Virus record (IMG/VR): IMGVR_UViG_3300042940_001755
Source: a virus
Lineage: Duplodnaviria > Heunggongvirae > Uroviricota > Caudoviricetes
Length of the DNA: 64,000 nt
Direction: 5' to 3' (one strand)
Part shown: piece by piece, positions 1 to 49,034 of the stretch
Layout: every line of letters begins with the position of its first letter
Position numbering within the stretch: position 1 is the first letter of the stretch
The notes under the pieces: model-generated
Database searches by the model: none
What the model saw: only the letters and a program-made list of their open reading frames with translations
Told to the model about the DNA's origin: nothing
Translations under genes and position numbers: made by a program

Positions 1-322
1 AAGCTCCTTTATAGATACTTTAAAGTACTTTAATAGTATATTGTAATAATTATTATCATAATTTCCATTATGGCCTTTAATGACCTTTAAAGTACCATAA
101 TAGTCTTTAAAGGCCTTTAACACCCATTATGGTTCTTTAAAGCTTCTTTTCAGTCTCTTTAAAGCTCCTTTATAGATACTTTAAAGTACTTTAATAGTAT
201 ATTGTAATAATTATTATCATAATTTCCATTATGGCCTTTAATGACCTTTAAAGTACCATAATAGTCTTTAAAGGCCTTTAACACCCATAATGGTTCTTTA
301 AAGTCAACTTTTCAGCCCTTTA
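1..322. repeat. Two tandem ~161-bp direct repeat units (1-161 and 162-322), degenerating to ~400. Each unit has ~5 palindromic CTTTAAAG octamers, CTTTAA half-sites and CCATTATGG motifs. The array runs off the left edge of the window.
   Basis: Unit 1-161 is repeated almost exactly at 162-322 (e.g. cccattatgg vs cccataatgg). CTTTAAAG is its own reverse complement. No ORF. Confidence 0.85.
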
Positions 323-1025
323 AAGATTTCCATAATAATAATTATTATAGATTTCCTAAAGGGCTTTTCAGAATCTTTAAAGAGGCTCTGGCGAGGGCGA
401 TGCCCGACCTATTCGAGGTGTGGTCTCGAAGATAGGCGCTGGTCTAGTAGTCAATAACTGACCTTAATCATTACTCTCCACCTATCTGTAAAGATCTGGC
501 GGGGGTCACTTGACAGCTTAGTCAAGAGTAATGATGAAGATTAACTATTGGGAGGGTGCTTCCTCGCCTAAAGGCACATTGCTGTACTTTTATTCTTTGT
601 GTTACTCTCATTTAGACTCGCTCATATGAAAGTTATACTCAAAGCTATCAACTGCACAATCCACATCGCTTCTGGTGGTGATACCAAAATTGATTATATC
701 GCCAATGAGGGTTGACTTCATAGGTTGCCCCTATGCCGTGATGGTATCTCTCCACCTACTCATTTGTTTGATTGCAGCAATAACAGTCTGATTAGGACTG
801 ATACACCTTAACGCAACCTACGATACCCATACCTTCTCGCTCTTCTCGAGCCTTTCTTTCGACTAGCGGGGTTGCTTGCGCTCCCCCAACCACATACTGT
901 CGCCCTCAATAAGGGTCGATATCCTAGTCTACTCAATCTCTCATCCCTTAGGCCGATTCAAGCCTAGGATAAGAGATACATAAGGGGTCTGCCGCGAATT
1001 ACTCCGCGTTTTGTGACCCATCATT

Positions 1026-1250
1026 ATGCAGGCGCACCGTTTCGCCGCCGCCACACCCGCCGCCGCCCGTTCTGCCCACCGCGCTGGCCCGACACGCCAC
1101 GCGCCGCGAAATTTTGACTCGCGCCCAGCCCCAGTTTCGTGCCACACGCGGCCAGTTTCGCGCCCCCCGCCAGCCCATGCGCCGCAAGGCCTCCGGGACT
1201 TTCCAGTGCTGGCGAGACCTGGCGCTCGTTACCTCGCGAGACCTGCGGAG
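1026..1250. repeat. GC-rich island 1 (~70% GC), member of a dispersed family (cgccgccgc ... gcgaaatt(t)tgact.cgcgc core)
   Basis: Local GC far above flanking sequence. Shares the core ccgacacg..cgccgccgcgaaatt..gac..cgcg with islands at 8268, 33395 and 50745. The ORFs that overlap it (941..1187, 1026..1442) are just translations of the repeat. Confidence 0.65.
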
Positions 1251-1330
1251 GGTAAGGTTTGGCTTACTGAGGGTAAGGTTTGGCTTACTGAGGGTAAGGT
1301 TTGGCTTACTGAGGGTAAGGTTTGGCTTAC
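1247..1330. repeat. 4 x 21-bp perfect tandem repeat GAGGGTAAGGTTTGGCTTACT; each unit holds a small inverted repeat (GTAAG..CTTAC)
   Basis: Read directly; it sits immediately 3' of the stop codon of CDS 1330..1671. Confidence 0.9.
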
Positions 1331-1671
1331 TAGATGTCTAAGTTTAAGGCATTATGGACAGCTCTGCTCGCCAAGGCATCTGCCTGCGCTTGGAGCTTCC
1401 CCTCTAGCATCTTCTCATGCTCTAGCTCCCATGCCCAATTAGTAGTATGAACTGTAATATGCTCAAATGGTTCCTTTGTCCGACCTCTGGCGTATAACTT
1501 TAGAGGTGGCTGGCTAGTGATAATCCTGATTGCCTCTTCACGTATCTTCTTCTTACTGGGAAGGTATTTATAGCCAGTGAGTATTCCGCTATCACTTCCT
1601 CCCGCCCATGCAGCGCCCCATGCAGCTACCCCTTGCTCTACTTTAACTCCTATATACACTGTCTTCATCAT
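1330..1671 (-). CDS. hypothetical protein (113 aa); start moved to MMKTVYIG
   Basis: The ORF track N-terminus (ATYFFFVRE) is a translation of the terminator A-run. An ATGATG at 1666-1671 is preceded by GGAGAGGAAG. Confidence 0.5.
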   Translation of the reverse strand: MMKTVYIGVKVEQGVAAWGAAWAGGSDSGILTGYKYLPSKKKIREEAIRIITSQPPLKLYARGRTKEPFEHITVHTTNWAWELEHEKMLEGKLQAQADALASRAVHNALNLDI

Positions 1672-1684
1672 CTTCCTCTCCCTC

Positions 1685-1738
1685 ACAAAAAAAAAATAGG
1701 TAGCAGGCACCCTCCGAAGAGAGCACCTGCCGGTAACT
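1685..1738 (-). terminator. Intrinsic terminator T1: GC-rich stem-loop followed by CCTATTTTTTTTTT on the minus strand
   Basis: rc reads GGCAGGTGCTCTCTTCGGAGGGTGCCTGC TACCTATTTTTTTTTTG. The architecture and tail are shared with 4688, 12978 and 44944. Confidence 0.7.
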
Positions 1739-1971
1739 GTTAATGTCTCACTGCTAGCGAGGCACGAGCCCCTTCAAAGAGCAATTCAGGCCTGACCCGC
1801 TTGTACTCAGCTCTGTCAGCTTCACTTTAGTACCAGCAACAAATTCTGCATCAAAGGAGTAGCGCTCGCTCACGCTCCCACATAAACACCCTGCCATTGT
1901 TATCTACTACTGACAAAGAACAATCACCACATTCCTCGATAGCTGACATGATATTCTTCAAGAGCACCATC

Positions 1972-2436
1972 TTACAACCCCTGCGCTAAAACATCGGCGA
2001 AGCTTCTAGCTGACTTCGAAGCTCTTTTATCGACCAACTCATTTCCCTCAATACCTGAATGGCCTTTGACCCACACCCACTCAATATCATGAGGAGCATG
2101 CGCGATATGCAGTCTCTCCCACAAATCAGCATTCTTGACAGGTTTCCCGTTAGCCAATTTCCAACCCTTAGCTTGCCACCCTGCTAGCCATTTAGTAAAG
2201 CCTTCAAGCACATACTTCGAATCTGTATACAACTTACGCACCACACCATCCTCTAGCGGCAATCGTTCTAAGGCGTCAATCACTGCCATCAACTCCATGC
2301 GATTGTTTGTCGTATGGTAGTCGCCACCACTGCCGAAACATACCTTTACATCACCTCTCATGAAGTCCCACGCCCATCCGCCAGGCCCTGGATTACCTAA
2401 ACAAGCACCGTCTGTGTATATCTCTGTTACCATCAT
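1972..2436 (-). CDS. rnhA: Ribonuclease HI
   Basis: IYTDGACLGNPGPGGWA .. TNNRMEL .. YTDSKYV .. VKGHSG..NE..D motifs of the RNase H fold. Confidence 0.85.
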   Translation of the reverse strand: MMVTEIYTDGACLGNPGPGGWAWDFMRGDVKVCFGSGGDYHTTNNRMELMAVIDALERLPLEDGVVRKLYTDSKYVLEGFTKWLAGWQAKGWKLANGKPVKNADLWERLHIAHAPHDIEWVWVKGHSGIEGNELVDKRASKSARSFADVLAQGL

Positions 2437-2666
2437 AAAATTGCCTCTATTGCTGCTACAAGTTTGGAAATTTCCTCAAAGGATAATCCTCGAGGAGTAA
2501 TTACTGAAAAGTCTAAATGGAAACAGCTCTCTCCCTTGTAAGGGGCTATTCGCTGGAGAGGTTCGACAATCAACACTCTGCCATTACTGCCACTGGGAAC
2601 ATCTATCTTTACCATATTAAGACATCCTGAAATTGTTAATAACTGCTTGCTTGAACGCCAACCCAC
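2433..2666 (-). CDS. hypothetical protein (77 aa)
   Basis: Co-oriented ORF whose end overlaps its neighbour (translational coupling). Confidence 0.4.
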   Translation of the reverse strand: MGWRSSKQLLTISGCLNMVKIDVPSGSNGRVLIVEPLQRIAPYKGESCFHLDFSVITPRGLSFEEISKLVAAIEAIL

Positions 2667-2901
2667 TCAACGAATCTGAAGTGGGGTAGCCGCATACTTC
2701 CACCCTGTTGGCACTAACGAAATACACAATCGTACCATCAGCACACTGCCACGATCTCTTATCAGGAGATAGTTCCCAGTCAAAACGACGAGTAGCCAGC
2801 TCGAACATCAGTTCTTCTTCTGACAAAGGAGGTACTCTTGAATACCACCAATACATCAAGATTAATGTCAACACAACAGCCAAGAAATAACTCATAATCA
2901 C
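2617..2901 (-). CDS. hypothetical membrane protein (94 aa, N-terminal TM helix)
   Basis: Hydrophobic N-terminus FLAVVLTLILMYWWY. Confidence 0.4.
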   Translation of the reverse strand: MIMSYFLAVVLTLILMYWWYSRVPPLSEEELMFELATRRFDWELSPDKRSWQCADGTIVYFVSANRVEVCGYPTSDSLSGLAFKQAVINNFRMS

Positions 2902-3281
2902 ACCTCGTACACATAGAGAGAATTCTGAGCGTCTACCGTAACTAGACGCGTTCTACTCTCGGTCCATCCAACAAACCGAAGAGGTCCTACAGTTCCCGGA
3001 AGGATCTCTAAAGCCGCTGGAAGCACTTGAGGATTCTGGCTATTTCCCCAAGCGCTAAATAACGCTTCAATGTTAGAGCGACCTTCTTCTAAATTAGAAG
3101 ACCCGATCAATGCACGATTTGGACTCACAATCAACCGCGTCTTAGCTCTTAATTGCCCTTCCTCATTACGAGTTACAAGCTGACATTCTGCCACATAGCA
3201 GAGGCCTGAAGGTAGCTGTTCTCTCTTCATTTCCCATGCCATGCTGTTTGCTACTGCTACTGTTAACGCTTCCAAAAACAT
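2898..3281 (-). CDS. hypothetical protein (127 aa)
   Basis: Co-oriented ORF tightly packed with neighbours. Confidence 0.45.
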   Translation of the reverse strand: MFLEALTVAVANSMAWEMKREQLPSGLCYVAECQLVTRNEEGQLRAKTRLIVSPNRALIGSSNLEEGRSNIEALFSAWGNSQNPQVLPAALEILPGTVGPLRFVGWTESRTRLVTVDAQNSLYVYEV

Positions 3282-3283
3282 TA

Positions 3284-4201
3284 CTATTCCTCGCCTTTAA
3301 GTAATTTAACAACACCGATATGCGACAGCTTAGCACCTGGTACAGATAGCGGCCAAGTAGTCACTTTAATATTTAGAACTTTCAAGAATACATCAGAATC
3401 TCCTCTCACCTCATAGTCCCTTTTAAGGCAATCCACACTATAATCACAGTGGAACAGTCCTAGGTTACTGAGCGCCAAATTGTTAGGATTCAAATCAATG
3501 AAGCCTACGTACATAAGAGGAGGGACTCTGCCATTGACGGAGATATAACATGTCGTTGCAATATCGTAATAGTAGCCGCCGCTTCTTTCACGTACTACAG
3601 GACGCTTATTAGTCATGTCTCTGACCCCATAGACTGAGATGTACGGTCTGCGTGAGAACAGCACACCTGTTTCTTCGTCATAATGGAACCACTCATTAAA
3701 CTTAGTAAGACTAAGAGGAGTTAGCCCTCCTGGCATGGCATTAACCGGCAATCTGTAGTCATAGAAATTACGCGCTAACGTCAACTCTAAATTACATAGC
3801 CGATTGTCGTTGACATCTCTGAAGCCCTGAGGGCCTACTTTATGGCGTACCCAATAATTAGCAGGGATTTGCCCGTTATGCTCTGTCCAGATAGCAGAGG
3901 CAACATCTAACAATAAATCTGTATAGGTCAGATATGTAGCTCTCTTGGACTCTCTGTAGTCCTCCTCGTCTACCACGCCTGGAAGTGTCTTTACTATTCT
4001 TACTTCTTCAGTCCAGTAGCGAGGATTCTGAATCCATCTTGGCGTTGTCTTGGGCGCAGTAGGAAATACAATGAGACCGTCCTCATCTTTGACCACGCCA
4101 TTTCTTAACTTCTTTGCAACCCCGACTGCGACTGCGTAACTCTTGTATCTAACATTCTGTTCACCGCCGTGGATTTCTCCTGTCACAAAATACATGCTCA
4201 T
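3284..4201 (-). CDS. Putative HNH (HNH_3-like, His-Me finger) endonuclease-domain protein, possibly a free-standing homing endonuclease
   Basis: VRHKVGPQGFRDVNDNRLCNLELT matches the H..(N/D)..DN..NLEL pattern of the HNH_3 family. The remaining ~150 aa are unassigned. Confidence 0.35.
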   Translation of the reverse strand: MSMYFVTGEIHGGEQNVRYKSYAVAVGVAKKLRNGVVKDEDGLIVFPTAPKTTPRWIQNPRYWTEEVRIVKTLPGVVDEEDYRESKRATYLTYTDLLLDVASAIWTEHNGQIPANYWVRHKVGPQGFRDVNDNRLCNLELTLARNFYDYRLPVNAMPGGLTPLSLTKFNEWFHYDEETGVLFSRRPYISVYGVRDMTNKRPVVRERSGGYYYDIATTCYISVNGRVPPLMYVGFIDLNPNNLALSNLGLFHCDYSVDCLKRDYEVRGDSDVFLKVLNIKVTTWPLSVPGAKLSHIGVVKLLKGEE

Positions 4202-4473
4202 CTCCGAGGTAGTCTAGATAATGGAATTACAGTGTTGTTCGTAATGGGCGCGTAAGAATACGGTTCGCCTGGAGGATGCATATGCAACCGGCCATGAGAG
4301 TCATATTGCTGAATCCACGATGGACCATTTTGGTAATTGCTACTTGTCGCAGTATGCCTACCAGATGCTGCGAATTTGCGAACACCACACTCATCGGTAT
4401 AGAAGCCTTCATGCGGCTGTTGCCCTATTGTACAGCAACCTGTCAAGGTTAACGCTGCTAATAAAATCTTCAT
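4198..4473 (-). CDS. Small lipoprotein (signal peptide MKILLAALTLTGC with lipobox LTGC)
   Basis: Internal Met followed by a classic SPII signal and lipobox. The upstream in-frame extension lacks an RBS. Confidence 0.5.
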   Translation of the reverse strand: MKILLAALTLTGCCTIGQQPHEGFYTDECGVRKFAASGRHTATSSNYQNGPSWIQQYDSHGRLHMHPPGEPYSYAPITNNTVIPLSRLPRR

Positions 4474-8155: not shown

Positions 8156-8267
8156 TGTAACACTCCTAAAGGATTTGGCTTTCGCCGTTTAAATAAAATT
8201 AGTTAAGATAAGTTATAGGGAGTTCAACCCCGAACACGTCAAATCCACGTCTGACGCGCTCCTATCA

Positions 8268-8400
8268 TTATGTATCGACAGCGAGGGCGCACGCCACCGC
8301 CGCCGCACACATTTCTAGCCGCCCCCGCGCCCCGACACGGCACGAACACGCCGCCGCCGCGAAATTCGCAGACGCGGGAGAGGACTTACGCGGTTACTGA
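8268..8400. repeat. GC-rich island 2
   Basis: Contains ccgacacggcacgaacacgccgccgccgcgaaattcgcagacgcgg; same family as 1026, 33395 and 50745. Confidence 0.65.
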
Positions 8401-8903
8401 ATAGCCCCGCGCTTACACTCACTTGCGGGACAGAAGGGATGTTGATCCTCCTGAACCTTAGTGTACCGCTCCTTGATGTACTGAGGAACAAAACTCTTGT
8501 TGGTCTTTAAGCGACAAAGATCCAAGCCCTCACTCTCATCAGCGTAGATTGCTTCACCGCTAGTAGACCACCGTAAAGGCAGCCACTCACCTTTGTCCAA
8601 GTACGCTCCATGTATTGCCTCATCTATTTCAGCAAATAGACGCACCGCCTTTCCACTCTTGGTTTCGCACAAGCTCTTCACAGTGAACACTTGAGTTGGC
8701 CGCAGTGACCAATCCACATTGTTAGGACTGATACCCGACAACCACCATCTGTGGATTTCAGGTACATCATCCACGAAGTCAATGATTCCGTAGATGTACG
8801 TATCATCGACTCTGAATATCTCCACAGGATGTCCAGTTGCTGTGAACATCTTTTGTGATACCTTGATAGCAGGTTTGTTCTGCCCATAATTACCCATTGC
8901 CAT
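8394..8903 (-). CDS. hypothetical protein (169 aa)
   Basis: Co-oriented ORF. Confidence 0.5.
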   Translation of the reverse strand: MAMGNYGQNKPAIKVSQKMFTATGHPVEIFRVDDTYIYGIIDFVDDVPEIHRWWLSGISPNNVDWSLRPTQVFTVKSLCETKSGKAVRLFAEIDEAIHGAYLDKGEWLPLRWSTSGEAIYADESEGLDLCRLKTNKSFVPQYIKERYTKVQEDQHPFCPASECKRGAIQ

Positions 8904-16021: not shown

Positions 16022-17341
16022 TTAGCATATAACACCTGCTCTTGCTCTCTTGCGAATGTCTTCAAGGGAATCATCACAGTACGGCTGACCATTGAAGTAA
16101 TAGTCAACAAAGTCTGGATGTGTCAATCTGCCGCCCTTAGAGCGCTTACCAGGGTCTGTGACAGGGTCTTTCACAGTATCCACCCATTTGCCATTGATCT
16201 CCATCGCTGAAGTCTTTTGAGCAAACTTATAGGTGTCTCTGTTTAGTTTCTGTAGCAAGCCGCCTCCAGAACCATACACGACATTCTCGGCTGCGTAACC
16301 TTCTTGTTCCACTACTTGTGTCAGCTTTACTAACGTCTCGAAGTCAATACCATCCCCTTGAATGATGCCGACATTGCTCAAGACCTTGTAGCCTTTCGAG
16401 TTAACTGTGCTTTCAAAATACGCGTCAAGTATCTCCAGGATTAGAGGGATTACTTCGACAGCATCACCACTGTCAGGGCGGATAACAGCCTTGATTTTTC
16501 TTCTCTGAATTTCTGCACCGAAGACATTACAGAACATGGAGGTATCATTGTAGATATCATATCCGTCTAACACGATTGACACTATGCCACCATCAGGGAT
16601 AGCATCTAGTACTCTACGTAAATATCCTCCCTGATTGTCCCTTCCGTACGCACATTGAACACTATGTTCCGTCGCAGGGATAGAGAAGCCAGCCATTCTG
16701 CAGAAGTAATTGTCACGCGCCATTATCAGCGCTTGCAGGTTATCAGTTCCTTGGAAGTTAACTAAATGTGCCACACCACCAATTGCAGCTGACTCTCTGG
16801 AAGTTACGCCCCTGGCACCAAAGTCATGGAGAGCGTACGCAGCCATTTCAGGTACATCTGAAGTCTGTGCATACAACGATTCCAACAGCAATCGAGCCTT
16901 TAGGCCGTTAGAGGCAATCGTTGTAGGATACCAGATAGCTCTCTGCAACGCCGTTTCAATATACGACGCTAGCCAGAACAGTCTTGGATCTGTTGTCTCA
17001 ATCACCACTAAGGGTGTCCGAGATGGTACCACAGAGCCTTCAGGTAAGCCTTGTATTAGCAGTGGCAGAAAGCCATTGTGCTCGTCCACAATAATCTCCC
17101 AACCAATCTTATTAAAGGGCACCCCATGCGCGGAGAAGAGTTTCTCCGCTTCTCTTATATCCCCGTGAGTAACAGGCGTTGAGAGATACTCACGGATGAA
17201 CATTTGAAGACCAAAGAAGCAAGTAGCTTCGTTTGCTACTCTCGCTTCGATATAGGCGAACTGGCCTGTGCTGCCTTCTGGGTAGAATGCTGCATGTGAA
17301 GCTTTGTAGCTGTCAGCGTTTAAGATTAAATTGTGACTCAT
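16022..17341 (-). CDS. nadV: Nicotinamide phosphoribosyltransferase (NAMPT/NadV)
   Basis: N-terminal ADSYKASH motif diagnostic of NAMPT, plus ~440 aa length and the GDG/GSGGGLLQ phosphoribosyltransferase core. Confidence 0.85.
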   Translation of the reverse strand: MSHNLILNADSYKASHAAFYPEGSTGQFAYIEARVANEATCFFGLQMFIREYLSTPVTHGDIREAEKLFSAHGVPFNKIGWEIIVDEHNGFLPLLIQGLPEGSVVPSRTPLVVIETTDPRLFWLASYIETALQRAIWYPTTIASNGLKARLLLESLYAQTSDVPEMAAYALHDFGARGVTSRESAAIGGVAHLVNFQGTDNLQALIMARDNYFCRMAGFSIPATEHSVQCAYGRDNQGGYLRRVLDAIPDGGIVSIVLDGYDIYNDTSMFCNVFGAEIQRRKIKAVIRPDSGDAVEVIPLILEILDAYFESTVNSKGYKVLSNVGIIQGDGIDFETLVKLTQVVEQEGYAAENVVYGSGGGLLQKLNRDTYKFAQKTSAMEINGKWVDTVKDPVTDPGKRSKGGRLTHPDFVDYYFNGQPYCDDSLEDIRKRARAGVIC

Positions 17342-29200: not shown

Positions 29201-32200
29201 CTAAAATTCTACCATGTCACCATCTGGGTCAAAGTCAGCTAGCTCTAGCCGCCCTGTGTCATAATGGTATTGTGCCCCTCTGACATTCCCTGTCAGACCT
29301 GTGTAGCGCGATTTAAGTACACGCATGAGGATTGTATTACGCTCCTTAGGATCTTCAGCGATAAGATTACGAGCGAAAGAGATTATGTCGAAGGAAATCT
29401 GCTTGATAGATCCAGAGTTGTGTGTCACTGTATGATTCTCTAATAGGAACCTGCCGTTTCCGCTTAGCTGAAAGCCGAAGTAAGGCTGCACATCAAGCTT
29501 CTCAATAAGAATACCACGCTTCAAAGGATCCGTGCGACGGACCTTAGCAACAATTCTAGTGGATTTCTGTGCAGGAATCTTTTTAATATCTCCTGAGATT
29601 GCCACTTCAAAGATAGTGCTTCCGTTAGAACCTGTATAGCTACCAGAAATTATTCTAGGGTGTACAGTGGAATACAAGCCTAGTGAACGTGCAATTCTGA
29701 CCACCTTTCGAGCAGTGTCCTCACACTTCTGGTAGAAGTAGTAGGCATTGTCTTTCACATTATAACAGCCATCTGTATCAATCAAGCCAGCGAGCAAATT
29801 GTACCTTACCGCCTTAGAGTTAAATACATAGACGTCAGGTACATGCTTATTCTCCCACACGCCTAGTTGACGAAGTTTGTCAAGCATTTCACCTTTCAGT
29901 CCCGTGTTGAAGTTGAAGTACTCCCGGTTTGGATCAGAAGGCGCTAATAATTCAGCGCCAATCTCGCCAGCTACTCTGTTTGAAATACCAAGATCACTGG
30001 CATCCATTATTCGGAAGGCAGACTTCGAACCATCGCCAAGCCAAGCTCCGAATGAATACGCAGGAATCAAGACAGGGATTTCAGGCAACTCATAACCTGT
30101 AGAGTAGTGCTGTTTGCACCTAAACTGCCAATTTTCTGACTCCTTCAAAAAATCACCAAGACGGACATCTCTCATGCGATCATTGTGTGACAGAGTTAAG
30201 ATATGGTCCTCATTGCAAATGAACGAATCATTAGAGGTCTTGGTGGTGATACGGTACATCTGTTGCTCGCCATCAAATAGGCGTAACACTTCACGAGGCA
30301 GACCATCATCGCCCATTAACAGGTCGCCAACTTTGATATCCTGCACTGCCCTCGCTCTTCCATTAGATAACAAAATTCCTGTATCGTACGCTAAGCAACC
30401 TCTGATATCATCTATAGAAGGCAGTCTCCCCTCCTCGAATGACTTCTGCCCCGATTGGGCCTTTCTCAGATGGCTCACCAGCCCAATCCAGACATTGTGC
30501 TTCTTGACAATGCGCAGTAGATGATTCATGATCTTGTCAACAGCTTCGTTACCGGTGAGATCCTCCGCACCTTCTGAGACCAAAATGGTAATGTGATCAA
30601 TGAAGAGATACTTACAACCCATAAGCGCCATATACTCCAGCTGATTCACAATAGACACGTCAGCCATCGATCCTTGATGATCTAGACAGAATACTCTGTC
30701 GTTTCCGAAAACATCTTCGAAAGCTGGTTGCAAATCCTCGATGGAGATCTCTTCTGCTGCAGGGTTACGCATTAGCTGCATCCCAGCTAACTTTCTAGCG
30801 GTCTCCGCAGGCGACTCTTCTAGCGCGATAATTCCTATCGCGTCTTGTGTCGTCTGAATGATATGCAGCATTGTCTCGCGTAACATAGTAGACTTACCTG
30901 AATTGTAAGTAATAACGCCATTTCCCAGCACAAAACGGTTGTCCGCGTTAACTTCAAATCCGTAAAACTCGCCGATGCCTATTGGCTCTACTACGAAACT
31001 AAAGCCGATCATGTTGCCTGCCTTATACTGTCTGGCTTGACGGCGTTTCTTTTCGGGCCAAGTAAGATACTCACTGACTAATACAGGGAACATCTCGCCA
31101 TTGGTTCGTATAGCTAGTCGATGAGAATCGTTGCATACAAAGGAAGTGCCATCTTCCAATGTAATGCGATGCATGAGTTCTTCACCTGTAAACAGCGTCA
31201 GAACTTCGCGGGGCATATTACAAGGGCCCATTACATAGTCACCAACCTCGATGTCTTCAACGCAGGACACTCCTCCGTCTAACATCCGAATCATAGTGCC
31301 TGGCGCAAAACAGCCTGTGCCACTAATGAAGAGGGCGATTTCACCCATTCTCATGCCCTTTAACTTAGAGTTTAAGCCCCCTAGACATGGCGGGTAAGGC
31401 AAGCTCTCAGCTTCATTGTACTCGACGAGAGCTTTCCAGATCTCCTCTTTACTGACAATCCCTGCAGGTGTATATCTGCCGGCTTCGAAGATCGCTGTCA
31501 TAAGGGCTGGGGACCCTTTGGTCGTCAACATCTCAGATGCGTCTTTGACTGGGAGCTTCGCTATCTTGATCTTCTCGGCACCGATAATCTTGATACACTC
31601 TGCTAGACACTTCTGCCCAGCTTCATCATTATCTAAGCAAAGGACAACTTCAGCGAATGAGCGGACCCAGTCACGATGTTTCAGCAGCGCCTTTGTGCCA
31701 GAAGCACTTGGCAGAGATACTACAGGGTAAATCTTATTATACTTACTGTGGGCCGCTTGAGCGATACTCATCGCATCTAACTCGCCTTCTGTGATAATGA
31801 GACGTTTGCCATCACTAGAGAATTTATCACGACCGAACAGTTCATCAGATTTACCGACCCAGTAGAACTCCTTATCTTCTACAACGCGGCACTTAAAGGC
31901 TTTATCGCCATATGGGTAGAAGTGTTTTGCTACAGTACCATCTGCTGCCACCTCAGCTCTTACCCCGAAGAACTCTGTAACACTTTTGGTAATTTCACGT
32001 TCTTTAAAGCCTCTAATCGGCAGACCTTGAATGTCTGCTATTTTTTCATGCCCGCTCACATACAGCTCCTCTTCTACTTCGAAAGAATCCCTGTTCTTAC
32101 CACCAGGGCGTTTACCTTTGTTGCAGACGAAACACCACCAATCATCAGGCCCGTATTCCACCTTGCCATCACTGCTGCCACACACATCGCAGCTTACGTG

Positions 32201-32209
32201 TTTAGCCAT
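29201..32209 (-). CDS. T7 gp4-like bifunctional primase-helicase, interrupted in-frame by two inteins (extein ~538 aa)
   Basis: N-terminal zinc ribbon CDVCGSSDGKV..CFVCN. Walker A is split as ISGTG|C...N|SGKST, and helicase motif H4 as IRG|C...N|SGSIKQ. Confidence 0.9.
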   Translation of the reverse strand: MAKHVSCDVCGSSDGKVEYGPDDWWCFVCNKGKRPGGKNRDSFEVEEELYVSGHEKIADIQGLPIRGFKEREITKSVTEFFGVRAEVAADGTVAKHFYPYGDKAFKCRVVEDKEFYWVGKSDELFGRDKFSSDGKRLIITEGELDAMSIAQAAHSKYNKIYPVVSLPSASGTKALLKHRDWVRSFAEVVLCLDNDEAGQKCLAECIKIIGAEKIKIAKLPVKDASEMLTTKGSPALMTAIFEAGRYTPAGIVSKEEIWKALVEYNEAESLPYPPCLGGLNSKLKGMRMGEIALFISGTGCFAPGTMIRMLDGGVSCVEDIEVGDYVMGPCNMPREVLTLFTGEELMHRITLEDGTSFVCNDSHRLAIRTNGEMFPVLVSEYLTWPEKKRRQARQYKAGNMIGFSFVVEPIGIGEFYGFEVNADNRFVLGNGVITYNSGKSTMLRETMLHIIQTTQDAIGIIALEESPAETARKLAGMQLMRNPAAEEISIEDLQPAFEDVFGNDRVFCLDHQGSMADVSIVNQLEYMALMGCKYLFIDHITILVSEGAEDLTGNEAVDKIMNHLLRIVKKHNVWIGLVSHLRKAQSGQKSFEEGRLPSIDDIRGCLAYDTGILLSNGRARAVQDIKVGDLLMGDDGLPREVLRLFDGEQQMYRITTKTSNDSFICNEDHILTLSHNDRMRDVRLGDFLKESENWQFRCKQHYSTGYELPEIPVLIPAYSFGAWLGDGSKSAFRIMDASDLGISNRVAGEIGAELLAPSDPNREYFNFNTGLKGEMLDKLRQLGVWENKHVPDVYVFNSKAVRYNLLAGLIDTDGCYNVKDNAYYFYQKCEDTARKVVRIARSLGLYSTVHPRIISGSYTGSNGSTIFEVAISGDIKKIPAQKSTRIVAKVRRTDPLKRGILIEKLDVQPYFGFQLSGNGRFLLENHTVTHNSGSIKQISFDIISFARNLIAEDPKERNTILMRVLKSRYTGLTGNVRGAQYHYDTGRLELADFDPDGDMVEF
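29417..30397 (-). mobile_element. Full-length intein (~327 aa) with a LAGLIDADG homing-endonuclease domain, in helicase motif H4
   Basis: Begins CLAYDTGILL and ends FLLENHTVTHN followed by Ser. LAGLIDADG motifs: FGAWLGDGSK and LLAGLIDTDGCY. Confidence 0.85.
30902..31312 (-). mobile_element. Mini-intein (~137 aa) inserted in the helicase P-loop (Walker A)
   Basis: Begins CFAPGTMIRMLDG (block A) and ends FVLGNGVITYN followed by extein Ser; no endonuclease domain. Removal restores GTGSGKST. Confidence 0.75.
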
Positions 32210-33394: not shown

Positions 33395-33545
33395 TTTGTG
33401 TGACACGGCAACGCGAGCGCACCAAACTGGCCACCAGACCGCGCCGCCACGCCACGTTTTTCCGCCGCCGCGCCGACAGCCACGCCGCCCCGCGAACGCG
33501 CAAATTTGACTACGCGCTTGCGGCCTAGACACGTCGAAGCAGTGC
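33395..33545. repeat. GC-rich island 3
   Basis: Contains ccgccgccgcgccgacagccacgccgccccgcgaacgcgcaaatttgactacgcgc; closest to island 1. Confidence 0.65.
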
Positions 33546-38700: not shown

Positions 38701-39192
38701 TTAATAGTCGCCGTTGTCTTCTGGGAAGTCATCGTCATCGTCCTCATTTACTGCGAAATCAGGGTCTTCCTCGCGTACGTATTCGACAAGGTTAATGACC
38801 TTCATTGCCTCTAAGGTCGCTGCAATACCCTTCTTACCTTCAAAGTTGTATTCAAAGGTGCTGATCTTAATGAGGCCTGTTGAGCCGTTACCGATCAACT
38901 CGCCCTTTAGGATCTTGTTCTTAGCGTTCAAGATATTAGGTTTGCGGAACGGTTCACCTGTTTTAGGATTCAGGTAATTTTGTTTAGCAGTGAAGCTGTA
39001 GGTTACAGCGTCTGTGTTATCATCCACTTCCTTCTTAATGTGGATGCCCAATGCTTTGACAGTTGGCAACAATTCTTTGTCGAACTCACAACGCACAGAC
39101 CAAGCCAACTTGGAGCTTAAGTCTTTACGAGGTTTGTCAGACAAGTTAGGGAATAAGAATGTTACTGCCAAAGTTGTTGTTTCACGAGCCAT
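38701..39192 (-). CDS. T7 gp2.5-like single-stranded DNA-binding protein, copy 1 of a tandem duplicate
   Basis: Small OB-fold-sized protein with an acidic C-terminal tail ending in an aromatic residue (EDDDDDFPEDNGDY). It sits between DNAP and RNAP as in T7. Confidence 0.6.
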   Translation of the reverse strand: MARETTTLAVTFLFPNLSDKPRKDLSSKLAWSVRCEFDKELLPTVKALGIHIKKEVDDNTDAVTYSFTAKQNYLNPKTGEPFRKPNILNAKNKILKGELIGNGSTGLIKISTFEYNFEGKKGIAATLEAMKVINLVEYVREEDPDFAVNEDDDDDFPEDNGDY

Positions 39193-39290
39193 GATACATC
39201 TCCAATATAGGGTTAGAGGACGACGGGATTGCCGCCCTCACAGATACTACGGTGACACAGATTAGAGACTGCGCCTCTCTCTTTTACTGC

Positions 39291-39782
39291 TTAGAAATCA
39301 GAATCATCTTCCGGAAAGTCATCAGATTCATCTTCATTTACTGCAAAGTCAGGGTCTTCCTCGCGTACGTATTCGACAAGGTTAATGACCTTCATTGCCT
39401 CTAAGGTCGCTGCAACACCCTTCTTGCCTTCAAAGTTGTATTCAAAGGTGCTGATTTTGACCTTACCAGTCGACCCATTACCGATCAACTCCCCCTTTAG
39501 GATCTTATTCTTGGCGTCGAGGATGTTAGGTTTGCGGAACGGTTCACCTGTTCTAGGATTCAGGTAATTTTGTTTCGCAGTGAAGCTGTAAGTTACAGCG
39601 TCTGTGTTATCATCCACTTCCTTCTTAATGTGAATGCCCAACTCTTTTACCTGAGGTAACAAAGCTTTATCGAACTCGCAGCGGACAGACCAAGCTAACT
39701 TGGAGCTTAAGTCTTTACGAGGTTTGTCGCTCAAGTTAGCGAATAAGAATGTTACATCTAGAGTTGTTGTTTCACGAGCCAT
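39291..39782 (-). CDS. T7 gp2.5-like SSB, copy 2 (about 92% aa identity to copy 1)
   Basis: Same length of 163 aa; tail ESDDFPEDDSDF; long runs of identical DNA with copy 1. Confidence 0.6.
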   Translation of the reverse strand: MARETTTLDVTFLFANLSDKPRKDLSSKLAWSVRCEFDKALLPQVKELGIHIKKEVDDNTDAVTYSFTAKQNYLNPRTGEPFRKPNILDAKNKILKGELIGNGSTGKVKISTFEYNFEGKKGVAATLEAMKVINLVEYVREEDPDFAVNEDESDDFPEDDSDF

Positions 39783-40534: not shown

Positions 40535-40866
40535 TCTAGCTCCTTTTCTTCTAAGCTAAGAGCCTCACCATTGACCATCACTATCTCGCCAGCACCAATG
40601 CTTCTAACAGCAGCAACGCTATCGATAAAGTCAACTAAGTCTTGGGAGAGTCTGTCTAGACTCGGCTTATTGCGGTACACTGCAATCAGGTTTACACGTG
40701 GACTCCCCTCTTCCCACTTAGTATGTAAATACCCAGAACTCAACACCCACACTGTCGTGACCGGCACAGGTGGTGTAAAATTAGGTCGTGACTCAGCTGC
40801 CAGAGCTGCGTAGTACGTATCATTTCCGCCCATTGTTTCCTCTATAATTGGATTAAGTGAAAGCAT
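40531..40866 (-). CDS. hypothetical protein (111 aa)
   Basis: Co-oriented ORF. Confidence 0.45.
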   Translation of the reverse strand: MLSLNPIIEETMGGNDTYYAALAAESRPNFTPPVPVTTVWVLSSGYLHTKWEEGSPRVNLIAVYRNKPSLDRLSQDLVDFIDSVAAVRSIGAGEIVMVNGEALSLEEKELE

Positions 40867-41617
40867 ATTCGCTCTCTAATACTGCATTGATGTCAAGTGA
40901 GCCGATTTCAAGACCTTCCCAGTTACCTGAGATATCATTCATCAGCGCTACTAGTGGATCGCTAGAGTACAGCTCAACAAACTTCTCTCTAGCGACTCTG
41001 AACAATACATCCATATCCGCACACAAACATCCGTAAGAGTCGTGGATGGTTGTCACAGGGAACTCACAGCCCACCTTAATCATCATTAAGTGTGCTGCAT
41101 CCATGCTATGAATGATATTAGGCGCTGCTCCTTGGCCTTGCTTGCGCTTAGCAGGGACTCGTTCTTCCTTGTGAAGTAGGCTAATCTTGATATCCTTGTG
41201 TCCATAAGACAGGATAACAGGCTTAATAGTGCCTTCTTCATAATGCTGAACCACTTTGAAGCCCGTTACAGGGACAGTCCAGCTGAGGAATTCACCTCTT
41301 TTCTCAGCAGCAATCCCTGCATTACTGAATATCTCAAGAAGCTTCATGGGTTTATTCATGCTATCTTTGCAGCTAGCGTAGATTAGTCTTCCCATGAATG
41401 CTCCCCATTTCCTGTCCAGGTCTAAGAGCGAATCGATGCCGTGCTTCTTGGCATCTTCTATGACCTGCTCAGACATCCCATAAGAAACTGCACCGTATGG
41501 GATAGTCATTACTCCCGCTTGTGTTCCGTAGATGTCGTTAGTTTCTACGCGTAGTTGGTCGCTTGTGTTATCTGACAAAATTGCCAAAAATCTTCTTTCT
41601 CGCTTTCTTCGCTGCAT
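40853..41617 (-). CDS. Single-subunit (T7-like) RNA polymerase, C-terminal segment (exon 2 or C-terminal half of a split gene)
   Basis: AGVMTIPYG .. APNIIHSMDAAHLMM .. VTTIHDSYGCL .. terminal EYAFT aligns with the T7 RNAP C-terminus (SVMTLAYG .. PNFVHSQDGSHL .. LIHDSFGT .. FAFA). The real 5' boundary is unresolved. Confidence 0.8.
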   Translation of the reverse strand: MQRRKRERRFLAILSDNTSDQLRVETNDIYGTQAGVMTIPYGAVSYGMSEQVIEDAKKHGIDSLLDLDRKWGAFMGRLIYASCKDSMNKPMKLLEIFSNAGIAAEKRGEFLSWTVPVTGFKVVQHYEEGTIKPVILSYGHKDIKISLLHKEERVPAKRKQGQGAAPNIIHSMDAAHLMMIKVGCEFPVTTIHDSYGCLCADMDVLFRVAREKFVELYSSDPLVALMNDISGNWEGLEIGSLDINAVLESEYAFT

Positions 41618-42008
41618 TAGCCGCAGCCTCTACCGTTGCAAAGGTACCTACAGTCTTGTTAACACCCCCTTCACAGACTCTAGCACGGTATTTACCAGAC
41701 TTCGTTGCAGTTACACCTTTAGCGCCGGTCTTCGCTCCTTTATTAGGAAGCGTGTTAATACGGTTCTCAGCCACTGAGGCTGCCCTCAGATTAGATATCT
41801 TGTTATTAGCAGGATTTCCATCCTTATGATCAACAACCTTCCCTTTCGGCACTGCTCCTTTATGCATCTCAAACACAATACGATGCACCATTGTCTTCTT
41901 GCCATTCTTCTCTACTTGCACATGCCCTTTGCTATTAGGCGAACCTGCCTTGCGGCCATTCTTGTGCAATAGCCCACCATTCTCTTTATCATAGAGATAC
42001 TCTACCAT
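41568..42008 (-). mobile_element. HNH-AP2 homing endonuclease ORF inserted within the RNA polymerase gene
   Basis: HNH motif GHVQV..MVHRIVFEMHKG..VDHKDGNPANNKISNLR and AP2 domain GVTATKSGKYRARV..TFATVEAAANA. It has its own strong RBS AAGAGGAGG and is in a different frame from the RNAP pieces. Confidence 0.8.
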
Positions 42009-42111
42009 ACAACCTCCTCTTTTGTAGCGACCAGCTACTGCTGCATATTCCGATGCAGGCCAGACTATATCACGATAGCAAATAGCTACCTCCCCCGTTT
42101 CCTGACACTTG

Positions 42112-43653
42112 TCAGTACGCCTTACGGCTAGTCGTTGAACCTTCTTTCAAACCATACTTCCCAGCATTATTTGAAACCTTGGCTGCTGATTGGCCATTAG
42201 CATCACACCATTGGGCTGTTCCAGCAATTAAAGGGATTTTACAAGCGCCTGTAATTAAACGCTTGACTATCTTTCTACGTTCTTTCTTGTCCTTGATACG
42301 ATTCCAGAATATGAAACAAGCAGAATCTTCTAGGAAATGATTTGCCTCTCTGTAGTTCTTTAGTCGTTCCCCTAAGACAACTCTGAGATCACTCCCACGC
42401 TCTGCAGCTCGCACTTCAGCCTTCATTTCTGTAACGACTGTGACGTAATTATCAGCAGCCGCCACTAATTTAGGGTCTAATTCTGCGATTGTCAGCGCGA
42501 TAAAGTTCCAGAGAGAATTTGCAACATACGCATACAAGTCACCAGGAAGTACTGATTTGACAAGATTCACATAGGGCGCAGATGTTTCATCTCTCGTCAG
42601 CATAGCTAGATGTTGACTTCCATTGGTGCTTCCGTCTATGAAGCACTCAAGATGGCTCACAAAAGTCTCTGGATTGCCACTTCGCCATGCTGCTTCATAC
42701 TCCATACAGGCTGCTAAGAACTGCCAGCACTTGTCAGCGCCCATCCACCCTTTAAAGAGCTTGGGTGATGTAGCATACGCCATGATTAGCTCATGATTAT
42801 CATCTACCCACTGCACTCTTTCCTCCAAAGGGATCTTGTCAGTCTTTGCTTTGTCTTCTCTGGCAGAAGTGCCCGCCCAGTTACTGGCAATTGATATCTT
42901 CAGCCATTTAAAGCCAATAGCTCCTAGCGGTTTTGCATCAGCTCGTAGTAGAAGGCCTTTGGCAACATCAGCGCCTTGTTCATGGAGGTAAGCAGATGCG
43001 ACATAGATACGTCCTCTGAAGTCTGTGTAGTAACCATGGTAGAAGATAGCACCTGCCAGATCTTGCGCCATTGTCAGGACTGTGTTGACTTCTCTACCTT
43101 TGGTGATTCTTGCCTCCTTTGAGACTTGTTTCCAAATATCTGAGAAGGCTTCCTCACGGTACTTATGCGCCCATATAGCAATTGCCAGCACTCTCTCGTT
43201 TACTTTCCATCCTACTGCTTGGGCACGGTTAACAGCGTCCAATACCATTGCAGGAACAGCCGGTAATACTGCTCGCGTCTTGATAAGTGGGTAAGTCAGC
43301 TGATCGTGTGTCCTAGAAGTCCAAGGAGAGTAAGGAATAAGTGAAGGGTAGACTGTAGTACTCTGTTTGGAACACTTCCGCCAAGCCTCCACAATAGCCT
43401 CATCATTCAGAACAGCCACTGTGTAGGCACTCTTCTTCCCTATACGTTCTACCTGTATCTTGAGAATCCTGGCAGCTTCAAGGTCGTAGACAAGATCTGC
43501 TGCTGCTTGTGCTCTTACTCTGGAACTGGGATCTCTGGAGAGTTTCGAGCCGAGCGCTGTCAGCACCTCTGACAACACTATTGGCTCATTATATTTAGCC
43601 CTTGTGTACAGAAACAACACCTCCGTAACAGTAGGACAAAGTTCACTAAGCAT
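42112..43653 (-). CDS. Single-subunit RNA polymerase, N-terminal segment (exon 1 plus read-through into the insertion)
   Basis: YHGYYTDFRGRIY and ECFIDGSTNGSQHLAMLTRDE align to T7 RNAP DWRGRVY and DGSCSGIQHFSAMLRDE. The last ~90 codons have no RNAP similarity, so they are probably intron or insert-derived. Confidence 0.8.
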   Translation of the reverse strand: MLSELCPTVTEVLFLYTRAKYNEPIVLSEVLTALGSKLSRDPSSRVRAQAAADLVYDLEAARILKIQVERIGKKSAYTVAVLNDEAIVEAWRKCSKQSTTVYPSLIPYSPWTSRTHDQLTYPLIKTRAVLPAVPAMVLDAVNRAQAVGWKVNERVLAIAIWAHKYREEAFSDIWKQVSKEARITKGREVNTVLTMAQDLAGAIFYHGYYTDFRGRIYVASAYLHEQGADVAKGLLLRADAKPLGAIGFKWLKISIASNWAGTSAREDKAKTDKIPLEERVQWVDDNHELIMAYATSPKLFKGWMGADKCWQFLAACMEYEAAWRSGNPETFVSHLECFIDGSTNGSQHLAMLTRDETSAPYVNLVKSVLPGDLYAYVANSLWNFIALTIAELDPKLVAAADNYVTVVTEMKAEVRAAERGSDLRVVLGERLKNYREANHFLEDSACFIFWNRIKDKKERRKIVKRLITGACKIPLIAGTAQWCDANGQSAAKVSNNAGKYGLKEGSTTSRKAY

Positions 43654-45450: not shown

Positions 45451-45717
45451 TCATTTGTTGAACCATTTCACCAAGCTGTAAACTGTCAAGCCTACAGCGG
45501 CGCCTAAGATAATTGGATTAACCGTTACAACTGCTGCTGCTGCTGAACGGGCCACGAATGGTAATACAACTTCCATACCAAGTGCTGTCACTGCCACTTG
45601 GGTTTCTACTGCAGCCAAACCTACGCTGACGACCATTGGCGCCATTTGTGTTGCCACTGCTGTTCCTGCTGCTGCTCCGAATGCTACTGCTGCTGTGTCT
45701 TGTGTTACTACTTTCAT
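45451..45717 (-). CDS. Small Ala/Val-rich membrane protein, family A copy 1 (88 aa)
   Basis: ~85% identical to 48677..48943; 2-3 predicted TM helices. Confidence 0.55.
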   Translation of the reverse strand: MKVVTQDTAAVAFGAAAGTAVATQMAPMVVSVGLAAVETQVAVTALGMEVVLPFVARSAAAAVVTVNPIILGAAVGLTVYSLVKWFNK

Positions 45718-45733
45718 GATAATACTCCTAAAT

Positions 45734-45810
45734 TGTGTTTAAAGTAGAGAGACGGAATTGTCTCTCTACCTGAATAGACTGTGGTCTGGTAAAACGGGAT
45801 ATCCGCTGCC
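45734..45810. repeat. Post-stop hairpin-pair element copy a (AGAGAGACGGAATTGTCTCTCT plus ACGGGATATCCG)
   Basis: Perfect 8-bp inverted repeat around GGAATT plus a GGATATCC palindrome; four copies in 45.7-48.7 kb, each starting at a stop codon. Confidence 0.7.
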
Positions 45811-45814
45811 TCAG

Positions 45815-46051
45815 TTATACGTTGATGTACAGTTGAGCGTAGCCGCCCAATTCTCTTTCTTCCACGCCAACGATGTAGACAGAGTCTTCTCTGCCTTCAA
45901 CGATGCGACCGAGGGCTTCACAGCCTCCGGCAAGGTACGCAATGCCATTGTACACGTGTCCTCTTACTGCCTCATTTTCGAACACTACTGCTCCGGCTTT
46001 CGTAGTGTATGTTACGTCGAAAGTGGTACCAAATAATTTAATTGTGCTCAT
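45815..46051 (-). CDS. hypothetical protein (start MSTIKLF, 78 aa)
   Basis: AGGAGA RBS before the internal ATG. Confidence 0.45.
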   Translation of the reverse strand: MSTIKLFGTTFDVTYTTKAGAVVFENEAVRGHVYNGIAYLAGGCEALGRIVEGREDSVYIVGVEERELGGYAQLYINV

Positions 46052-46231
46052 TGCGGCTCTCCTAGTTTGATGATAAAAGTGTTCTGAAGAAGTTGTCTTC
46101 TTCACGAGCTGATTTGCGCTCTTGCGCGATTTGTTTCAATGCCATCTCGATTGTGGCATTTAAACGTTCTTCAAGACTTCTAGTGTCTTCTACTAATGGT
46201 AATTCTGTGTTCATGATAATACTCCTAAAGG

Positions 46232-46298
46232 GGATAAGGCAGAGAGACGGAATTGTCTCTCTGCAGCGGTCTGATGAAACGGGATATCCGTTACCGCA
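46232..46298. repeat. Post-stop hairpin-pair element copy b
   Basis: Same two palindromes. Confidence 0.7.
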
Positions 46299-46725
46299 TT
46301 GATACTACATAACCGCGCATTGAGCCTGTAACTGATGCACCGATTGCATCCGCTACAGCTGTTTGGCGAGCCATTGATTCTCCAGCTAGCAACTGAAGAT
46401 TTACTTCTGATACACGAATGCGAACAAATCCGTTGTTCATTAGACCTGTTTCACGGAAAGTGTTGTAGCCGTCTCTTTCAAGCTCAACACCCATTGAGAT
46501 CAACTTAAGGATGATGCGTTGCGCATCACGATTGAAGATACCTCCGACTACTTCGTCGAGACCTTCTTGATACATGTCCATGTCGATGCATACTCCTGGG
46601 TTGTTTGCGATTACTTCGCGGATGGCTGCAAACTCACCACGCATTTCAATACGGGTGCCATTGTCTTCGAAACGGATACGAACGTTGTTTGCTGTAGTTG
46701 CTGCTGTTGTGTTCAATAAGTTCAT
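46291..46725 (-). CDS. hypothetical protein (start MNLLNTTAATT, 144 aa)
   Basis: Conserved initiation context GGAGTATTACCATG shared by the module genes. Confidence 0.45.
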   Translation of the reverse strand: MNLLNTTAATTANNVRIRFEDNGTRIEMRGEFAAIREVIANNPGVCIDMDMYQEGLDEVVGGIFNRDAQRIILKLISMGVELERDGYNTFRETGLMNNGFVRIRVSEVNLQLLAGESMARQTAVADAIGASVTGSMRGYVVSMR

Positions 46726-46801
46726 GGTAATACTCCAAATAAGATAAAATAATTGTGACCGGAATTGGTCTTGAAGGAACATCTTATGATGCAGGTGCCG
46801 C

Positions 46802-47077
46802 TTACGCAGCAGCTTTAAAGAATTTGACGACAGAGTACCCAATATCAGCATCACCTGTCAACTCCATTCCACCGAACTGCTCTGCCAAATACGCAGCGCG
46901 GTCAGCGTCATAGCTGAGGACGCTTAATTGCACTTCTGTGATGCCGACACTGATACGACCCATTTCATCACGGCGACTGTCATCGTAGTTGAAGCGGTCA
47001 TAAGCCACTTCGTTAAAGACCATACCTAATTTCAACGCTGCTGCTACTACTTCTTTTGCCAATACTAATGTGCTCAT
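46802..47077 (-). CDS. hypothetical protein (start MSTLVLAKE, 91 aa)
   Basis: RBS GGAGATTCAAAATG; class B motif ~70 nt upstream. Confidence 0.45.
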   Translation of the reverse strand: MSTLVLAKEVVAAALKLGMVFNEVAYDRFNYDDSRRDEMGRISVGITEVQLSVLSYDADRAAYLAEQFGGMELTGDADIGYSVVKFFKAAA

Positions 47078-47136
47078 TTTGAATCTCCGAATAAAATAAT
47101 TGTGACCGAATTGGTCATGAAAGGATACCTTTATCT

Positions 47137-47163
47137 CTTTCATATAAGATACTGCTTTCCGCG
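47137..47163 (-). promoter_or_regulatory. Class B T7-promoter-like motif copy
   Basis: Sense CGCGGAAAGCAGTATCTTATATGAAAGAGATAAAG. Confidence 0.5.
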
Positions 47164-47173
47164 TATTTGCTGC

Positions 47174-47461: not shown

Positions 47462-47476
47462 GATAATACTCCTGAA

Positions 47477-47552
47477 TTGTGTTTAAAGTAGAGAGACGGA
47501 ATTGTCTCTCTACCTGAATGACCAGATTGTGGCGCAGGATATCTGCTGCTGG
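47477..47552. repeat. Post-stop hairpin-pair element copy c (variant second hairpin GCAGGATATCTGC)
   Basis: Same first palindrome. Confidence 0.7.
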
Positions 47553-48023: not shown

Positions 48024-48049
48024 CGTAATTCTCCAAAATGTTTAATTGA

Positions 48050-48247: not shown

Positions 48248-48270
48248 TGTAATGCTCCTGGTAAATTGAA

Positions 48271-48561: not shown

Positions 48562-48573
48562 GGTAATACTCCG

Positions 48574-49033: not shown

Positions 49034-49034
49034 T

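Follow-up and report, generated by a model that had tools for sequence, protein, structure and literature searches.

The first ~1,330 nucleotides (nt) of a 64,000-nt stretch of DNA from an uncultured phage (Caudoviricetes; IMG/VR record IMGVR_UViG_3300042940_001755), hereafter the window, were found to be an internal intergenic spacer of 1.43 kb in a genome of ~107 kb. The repeat-rich and gene-free edge of the window, which resembles a genome end, is an internal module boundary. We read the spacer tentatively, with a probability of about 0.4, as an inter-module control region ahead of the packaging/structural operon of a siphovirus-like phage whose RNA polymerase and replisome are of the T7 type. 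In this reading an AT-rich array of palindromic octamers would serve in terminase recognition (pac-type) and/or control of the late operon, and it is joined to a candidate structured RNA in the gene sense. An earlier note on this DNA had described the repeats of the region, while the main interest, a conserved, strand-specific, multi-domain RNA-like element without a known family, was passed over.

The setting of the spacer was obtained from L001, a 107,670-bp JGI contig reached through the RNase H protein of the phage, which is 100% identical to the window over 925 nt (323–1247). In this contig a gene for a 118-aa protein is followed by the spacer (1,433 nt), the gene for a 140-aa protein, that for the large terminase (TerL) and the structural genes, all on one strand. 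Position 1 of the window corresponds to L001 12254 when extra repeat copies are allowed for, and the 140-aa gene has its ATG 286 nt further on. The spacer is internal in two contigs at unlike offsets, ~94.5 kb in that of 107,670 bp and ~22.4 kb in another of 107,624 bp, so that the assemblies represent one ~107.6-kb genome, circularly permuted, and close into a circle. Every plausible gene of the window lies on the minus strand, which is the gene sense used throughout, and GC skew carries no information here because all genes share one strand. Transcription had been thought to converge on this end; instead the genes are co-directional and run on into terL and the 140-aa gene, the candidate small-terminase gene (terS, product TerS). 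The absence of a credible open reading frame (ORF) from ~1 to 1330 was borne out, as the long ORFs are composition artefacts of a GC island and no frame is consistent across lineages.

A physical terminus or concatemer junction with terminal-repeat boundaries in the style of the T7 group, as proposed in the earlier note, is improbable at this place. In its favour, the DNA here is non-coding and rich in repeats, it is where many contigs of the family end, and the assemblies close into a circle as terminally redundant genomes do. Nevertheless, it is internal in full-length contigs, the 64 kb hold no second copy of the repeats, and tandem repeats and AT-richness account for the breaks of contigs. 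The layout is also opposite to that of T7, in which the terminal repeat and concatemer junction follow the terminase genes and precede the early promoters and the RNA polymerase gene. Here the spacer precedes terS/terL, and the early region and polymerase gene are found ~50 kb away, at ~40.8–50.5 kb. The late-to-early junction and repeated promoter-like motifs were located at 47–51 kb of the window. The first promoter-like motif and a G-rich island lie between the last late and the first early gene (50528–51066), and T7-style fixed ends, if present, would by layout fall in this interval.

The RNA-like element is a conserved core of ~640 nt (386–1031, minus strand) with homologues in two other lineages. 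Relatives were found via TerL and the 140-aa protein, and the spacer is present in full in two of them: L003 (IMG/VR 3300037487_000817), with a TerS candidate 78% identical, and L026 (JGI 3300042328), with one 71% identical. The same order was observed in all three lineages, namely G-rich island, ACATAA(T/A)GATGG, ~640-nt core, ACCACAC hairpin, C-rich box, AT-rich CTTTAAAG array and terS. Folding of the core in gene sense gave z scores of −3.5, −5.0 and −4.9 against dinucleotide shuffles in the three lineages, compared with −2.9, −1.35 and −1.6 for the antisense and −2.6 to +1.8 for eight coding windows of the same length. The RNAalifold consensus of the three-sequence alignment comprises 128 pairs in 20 helices, long-range helices included. 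Changes on both sides were observed in 39 of the 128 pairs versus 18.6 ± 3.0 in column shuffles (0/500 reach 39), and sliding the 3′ partner left only 4–7 such pairs. The consensus structure contains 67 G·U cells versus 12 A·C cells, and the alifold energy was −56.5 kcal/mol with 128 pairs in the sense orientation versus −41.5 kcal/mol with 81 pairs for the reverse complement.

The core is 49–57% identical between lineages, and third codon positions of terS are 45–49% identical. A stable fold kept at nearly third-codon divergence indicates selection on structure. Within the core, an invariant block of 18 nt is shared by all three lineages and blocks of 22–23 nt by L001 and L003. Conserved structure, compensatory changes and strand specificity, the generic marks of a structured non-coding RNA, were all found, in three lineages and with the structure taken from the same alignment. 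No family of Rfam 15 matched positions 1–3000 at E ≤ 1 (GOLLD, ROOL, group I/II introns, packaging RNA (pRNA) and transfer-messenger RNA (tmRNA) included), and at E ≤ 10 positions 330–1340 gave only two chance matches to microRNA hairpins, far under the gathering score. A coding role for the core was rejected, as six-frame matches between lineages jump frames. On account of the strand-specific fold, the compensatory changes and the lack of an Rfam family, we regard the core as a candidate new large structured RNA; that it is made as RNA, and in the gene sense, is suggested by the asymmetry of the fold. The ~900 bp described earlier as structured non-coding DNA are better read as a strand-specific structured RNA.

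The inverted repeats noted earlier at ~430–560 are real and were placed at 408–436 and 452–550. The former (minus strand; helix 20 of the consensus) is a hairpin with an invariant 7-nt loop, ACCACAC, on a fully covarying stem, which is UUCGAG/CUCGAA in L001, CCUGAG/CUCAGG in L003 and UAAGUG/CACUUA in L026. The latter (minus strand) is a long hairpin domain with a ~26-bp stem, G·U pairs included, and a branched tip; the equivalents in L003 and L026 have stems of other sequence, and the G·U pairs are valid in gene sense only. A C-rich box, CGCCCTCGCC in gene sense, marks the 3′ edge of the core (390–399, minus strand) and is kept as CGCCCTCGCC(CTCGCCC) in L003 and CGCCCCGAGCCCC in L026. The minimum-free-energy structure closes the core element via GGCGA/UCGCC, and the G-rich island may offer its 3′ end as the pairing partner of the C-rich box, as far as the predicted structure goes.

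The GC island of the earlier note was recovered at 991–1251, with 70–80% GC against a window mean of 46.6%; together with the AT-rich left end (24–29%) it forms the two extremes of the window. Within it, 1029–1247 (minus strand) is G-rich (G 45% and C 27% in gene sense) and contains short direct repeats. Four such islands are dispersed in the window (991–1251, 8251–8411, 33401–33541 and 50751–50871), all of them intergenic, each starting just past a stop codon, with G 41–45% and C 25–29% in gene sense. They share the short motifs GTGCGCC(C)T(C)GC and CGGCGGCG, and the islands at 1 and 8 kb both terminate in ACATAATGAT(G/A)G. The boundary between island and core carries the motif (A)CATAATGATGG (1018–1028, minus strand), which recurs at 8262–8272, the 3′ end of the 8-kb island, and has the counterparts ACATAATGATGG in L003 and ACATAAAGATGG in L026, in which an island occupies the equivalent place. 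The islands were also considered as structured RNA and rejected, with z from +1.6 to −1.3 against shuffles (+1.6 and +0.9 for the 1-kb island), and canonical G-quadruplex motifs were absent from all four; they may act as promoters, terminators or insulators.

Downstream of the core in gene sense, positions 1–385 form an AT-rich array, at 24–29% GC the lowest of the window, with 11 copies of CTTTAAAG, pure-AT palindromes ATAATAATTATTAT and the motif CCATWATGG. The palindromic octamers and accessory motifs pointed out earlier are clustered far beyond chance: CTTTAAAG has 16 matches in the 64 kb, with 1.44 ± 1.1 expected from dinucleotide shuffles, and 11 of these fall within 18–382, a density that exceeds the one elsewhere in the window by a factor of ~344, while four of the five CCATWATGG matches are located within 65–293. 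The octamers flank the pure-AT palindromes. Their spacings are 20–22, 30 and 57–67 nt in the window and 12 nt in L003, and those of 20–22, 30 and 12 nt would suit side-by-side or same-face binding. L003 has six copies (plus six of CTTAAAG) and L026 five, and over 22 sites in the three lineages the octamer is unchanged while its flanks vary. This invariance and the density of the octamers suggest that the array is probably a multi-site platform for protein binding. A literature search on CTTTAAAG gave nothing relevant. As a defined DNA ligand, the array could be employed for finding the recognition protein of an uncharacterised family of ~70–110-kb phages with single-subunit RNA polymerases.

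It was also supposed that the array continues beyond position 1. This was found to be so for three more octamers, one of them straddling position 1, over ~125 nt only; sister contigs then show a leader of ~160–165 nt followed by the terS candidate. A near-palindrome was observed ~25–40 nt before the terS start in each lineage (L001 12480–12520, L003 3895–3915 and L026 1745–1760; TAAAGTGCTCTTAAAG, TAAAGTGCTTTA and TTAAGCGCTTTA), and may be a further site of the same putative array-binding protein.

The 161-bp tandem units were confirmed by Tandem Repeats Finder (TRF) at 1–325 with period 161, 2.0 copies, 96% matches and a score of 606. The units at 1–161 and 162–322 represent a polymorphic duplication bounded by direct repeats of ~27 nt, ACACCCATWATGGTTCTTTAAAG, as would be expected for unequal exchange. 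Two full units are present in the window, and 1.3 (one full unit and a partial one of ~45 nt) in L001, L012 and L013. The earlier worry that these repeats are an artefact is justified in so far as the copy number differs between assemblies, but the unit–unit junction recurs in an independent contig, L014, so the duplication looks like a real polymorphism rather than a one-off artefact.

At the other end of the spacer, TRF found the four perfect copies of the 21-bp unit GAGGGTAAGGTTTGGCTTACT, as described, at 1248–1331 (minus strand). Each unit forms a 5-bp hairpin (GUAAG-CCAAAC-CUUAC in gene sense), and the array abuts and overlaps the stop codon of the upstream gene. The unit occurs nowhere else in the 64-kb window with three mismatches tolerated. 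Its copy number is four in the window, three in L001 and two in L012, Logan contigs break within the array, and it is absent from L003 and L026, which keep everything else. The 21-bp array is a lineage-specific polymorphic minisatellite by these sequence comparisons, and the earlier reading as protein-binding iterons was abandoned. One could go further and regard both arrays as assembly errors or neutral minisatellites and the remainder as a decaying spacer, as copy numbers differ between assemblies and the 21-bp array is lineage-specific. This is very improbable for the spacer as a whole: the 161-bp junction is found in a second contig, 323–1247 is identical to L001 over all 925 nt, and architecture, octamer and RNA structure are kept across lineages with near-saturated synonymous sites.

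In the explanation that we favour, the spacer would consist of four parts in gene sense. A non-essential, copy-variable minisatellite of 21-nt hairpins, placed at the stop codon with which the last replication-module gene ends, would be followed by a G-rich spacer element from a dispersed family, and then by an RNA of ~640 nt, transcribed with the genes, with a multi-domain fold that ends in the ACCACAC hairpin and the C-rich box. The fourth part, the most AT-rich DNA of the window with 9–14 CTTTAAAG palindromes around pure-AT palindromes, would be the platform for a phage-encoded DNA-binding protein, the top candidate for which is the small terminase encoded 170–510 nt downstream. Small terminase on the array would mark the packaging start (a pac-type site), and the AT-rich tract would also hold the promoter(s) of the late operon. 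The pac-type reading is favoured because array and terS go together in every lineage, because the motif shifts as the TerS candidate diverges, and because contig ends in this family are far commoner just before terS than just after it, 10 of 37 IMG/VR contigs ending ≤1.2 kb upstream versus two ≤1.2 kb downstream, with several JGI/Logan contigs ending likewise. The array adjoins the terS candidate, ~165 nt upstream of it, and the 140-aa gene abuts that of TerL, an adjacency shared with pac and cos sites. The earlier suggestion of a packaging-signal region stands to the extent that the region is non-coding, has repeats of the protein-binding type and lies directly upstream of terS/terL, where many siphoviruses hold packaging signals. 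We infer both the identity of the octamer-binding protein and a packaging start within the array from the sequences.

Recognition sites of terminases are known next to terS, as in the cosB R-sites of lambda, the pacL/pacR boxes of SPP1 and the pac hexamer clusters of P1. The array resembles them in its short repeated motifs, in its bendable AT-rich DNA where the packaging module begins, beside the small-terminase gene or at it, and in having multiple sites one to three helical turns apart. It differs in having 9–14 perfect 8-bp palindromes over ~400 nt that lie wholly upstream of the putative terS, and in being known from sequence alone.

The assignment of the terminase genes is of unequal strength. 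TerL, encoded downstream of the 140-aa protein, matched phrog_2 with E 1.4e-33. The 140-aa protein has no match in Pfam or PHROGs; its AlphaFold model (pLDDT 67) shows a core of two long helices, and its top PDB fold matches are the small terminases of G20c, P74-26 and T6, at a non-significant E of 1.3–4. The relatives of TerL include EBPR siphovirus 1 (54%), the roseophages DSS3_VP1/PM1 (50%) and Pelagibacter phage Kolga (36%), and more distantly Dhillonvirus, Kagunavirus and T5-like phages. The roseophages, which are cultured relatives, have a different layout.

Several points weigh against the favoured explanation. The TerS label of the 140-aa protein is weakly supported, by position, size and the non-significant fold matches, and the relatives of TerL mix headful-type phages with those of T5 type (long terminal repeat), so that the packaging mode is not predicted. 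Tandem repeats and extreme AT content would account equally well for the breaks of contigs at this place. Most pac sites characterised so far overlap terS or lie inside it, with fewer sites than are present here, and perfect palindromes are commoner for dimeric regulators than for terminase rings. As for the RNA, the evidence comes from only three lineages, and the pair counts are inflated because the sequences that were counted had also supplied the structure; protection of a long untranslated leader could by itself be what selects for strong structure and G-richness.

For the same DNA, a transcription-activated replication origin of the T7 type was considered and is a serious rival, though rather unlikely. 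A transcript through island and RNA would open the AT-rich DNA and prime the T7-like replisome, perhaps after trimming by the RNase H that is encoded 0.6 kb upstream of the spacer (1972–2436), while CTTTAAAG and the AT palindromes would organise unwinding or helicase loading. The replisome is in fact T7-like (gp4-type primase-helicase, Pol A, two single-strand-binding proteins, 5′–3′ exonuclease and single-subunit RNA polymerase) and no initiator was recognised. The array has the lowest GC of the 64 kb, the strand immediately upstream of it is G-rich as the non-template strand, and the AT-rich tract before terS is kept family-wide, down to 10–16% GC. Polymorphism of repeat copy number is common at origins, and the primary origin of T7 consists of two phage promoters and then an AT-rich stretch. 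The likeness to the T7 origin and junction thus extends to the single-subunit RNA polymerase, the replisome of gp4/gp5/gp2.5 type, transcription into an AT-rich tract and non-coding short repeats. The T7 origin, however, lies just after the polymerase gene, has defined phage promoters and is not marked by palindromic octamers. In the spacer no phage-polymerase promoter was identified: the AT-rich stretch is present, but the only recurring promoter candidates are ACATAATGATRG (two sites) and a 30-nt motif elsewhere, and no consensus of a phage promoter could be defined from the motifs of the window. The islands have no canonical G-quadruplex motif, and a location that opens the packaging module and is conserved together with terS suits packaging or late expression at least equally.

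Origins of the iteron type and centromere arrays (R1 parC, F sopC) also have tandem units with short sites and copy-number polymorphism. The sites here are palindromes and not direct iterons, no Rep, ParA/ParB or ParM/ParR was recognised in the scanned 64 kb, and neither the flanking genes nor 40 ORFs of the window showed an initiator domain.

Another explanation, which we consider unlikely, confines the spacer to the late operon, with tandem promoters, operators for a dimeric regulator and a core that acts as a nuclease- or Rho-resistant leader or as a processing platform. A long co-directional operon does begin after the spacer. Eight pairs of sigma-70-like hexamers, read in gene sense, overlap with the repeats, versus 3.0 ± 1.7 in shuffles, and CTGAAA-N16-(T/C)ATAAT pairs recur in gene sense with CTTTAAAG inside their spacer, but such hexamer matches are cheap in DNA of 25% GC. 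Palindromic sites suit dimeric helix-turn-helix regulators, and a G-rich, highly structured untranslated RNA would presumably resist the loading of Rho. On the other side, no regulator gene was recognised nearby, 9–14 sites over 400 nt are far above typical operators, and the invariant blocks of 18–23 nt and the ACCACAC loop point to an RNA function beyond stability.

Whether the core (possibly ~900 nt with the pairing of island and box) also represents a new class of large ornate phage RNA, acting in trans or in cis in packaging or in replication priming, is doubtful at present; if true, it would be the first large ornate RNA tied by position to a packaging system of terminase type. GOLLD and ROOL are large ornate RNAs of phages and prophages, of unknown function and often near tRNA islands (PMC12286853). 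The core resembles them in being phage-encoded, with ~600–800 nt, multi-domain folds, long-range helices and no known protein partner (PMC12286853). It differs in that it matches neither covariance model, has no tRNA genes nearby and is found in three lineages only. RNAs like GOLLD and ROOL are few, striking and so far without an assigned role, and a new one with a fixed context would offer a concrete hypothesis and a testable system. The pRNA of phi29 is likewise a phage non-coding RNA next to packaging functions, but it has ~170 nt and an Rfam model, with no match here, and phages of the phi29 type are without a small terminase, whereas here a TerS candidate and a classical TerL are encoded.

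Beyond the three lineages, a second clade (L015–L024; TerS 55% identical) is without the core and keeps an extremely AT-rich tract upstream of terS, in which, in L016, the 7-mers CTTTAAG and CTTAAAG replace the octamer. At the position of the core, L016 has a perfect 12-bp helix, AGCGTCCTCAGA/TCTGAGGACGCT, around ~170 nt (4078–4273), which may be a smaller structured element that is missed by models of the first clade. Among more distant relatives of TerS (37 IMG/VR loci) the octamer is lost and a very AT-rich tract is kept, down to 10–16% GC. When these 37 loci were searched with a covariance model for the central 207 nt and with an nhmmer profile, no diverged copy of the core came up outside the three lineages. 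Pattern scans for the core returned the L003 contig and chance matches from viral contigs, two chance matches inside coding genes from metagenomes, and none from genome contigs. Against 50,697 phage records, neither blastn of 1–1400 nor megablast of 1–25000 gave a match. RNase H was tried as a lineage marker and is useless, as it retrieves thousands of bacterial RNase HI sequences.

Upstream of the spacer in gene sense lies the last gene of the replication module (1330–1686, minus strand), whose 118-aa product has no known domain and for which a search gave no relatives. Upstream of this gene, a hairpin followed by a T run resembles an intrinsic terminator (1702–1731, minus strand), with the tail CCTATTTTTTTTTT. 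The same tail is common to three intrinsic-terminator-like sites on the minus strand, at 1700, 4705 and 12994. In L003, two tandem 64-nt terminator-like hairpins with a run of T16–17 (1832–1951) lie upstream of the last replication-module gene.

The window encodes a split single-subunit RNA polymerase, Pol A, a gp4-type primase-helicase with inteins, ribonucleotide reductase, nicotinamide adenine dinucleotide (NAD)-salvage enzymes, two paralogues of the T7-type single-strand-binding protein, a 5′–3′ exonuclease and RNase H, and, at its far right, tail-fibre-like proteins. ARAGORN found no tRNA or tmRNA. The RNA polymerase gene is interrupted (40853–43653, minus strand), 42112–43653 corresponding to PF00940 1–139 and 40853–41617 to PF00940 162–373, with an ORF for an HNH_3+AP2 homing endonuclease (41568–42008) between the parts; it is either intron-containing or a split gene. 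The Toprim primase-helicase (29201–32209, minus strand; 1002 aa) carries Hint and LAGLIDADG homing-endonuclease domains, which indicates at least one intein. The promoter-like motif of ~30 nt, ending in ACGCGCAnAAAGnnGTATCTTATATGAAAG, has five minus-strand sites (50540, 49640, 49019, 47151 and 13353), four of them upstream of the polymerase gene, in what is presumed to be the early region. This region (45700–49300) contains further repeats, namely a hairpin AGAGAGACAATTCCGTCTCTCT (three copies), CGGATATCCCGTTT (three copies) and a ribosome site plus start, GGAGTATTACCATG (four copies), and the repeated modules suggest tandem paralogous small genes. The genes for NAD salvage, NAMPT and an NMNAT-Nudix fusion, were located at 16022–17341 and 18234–19193, and the two single-strand-binding protein paralogues are adjacent, at 38701–39782.

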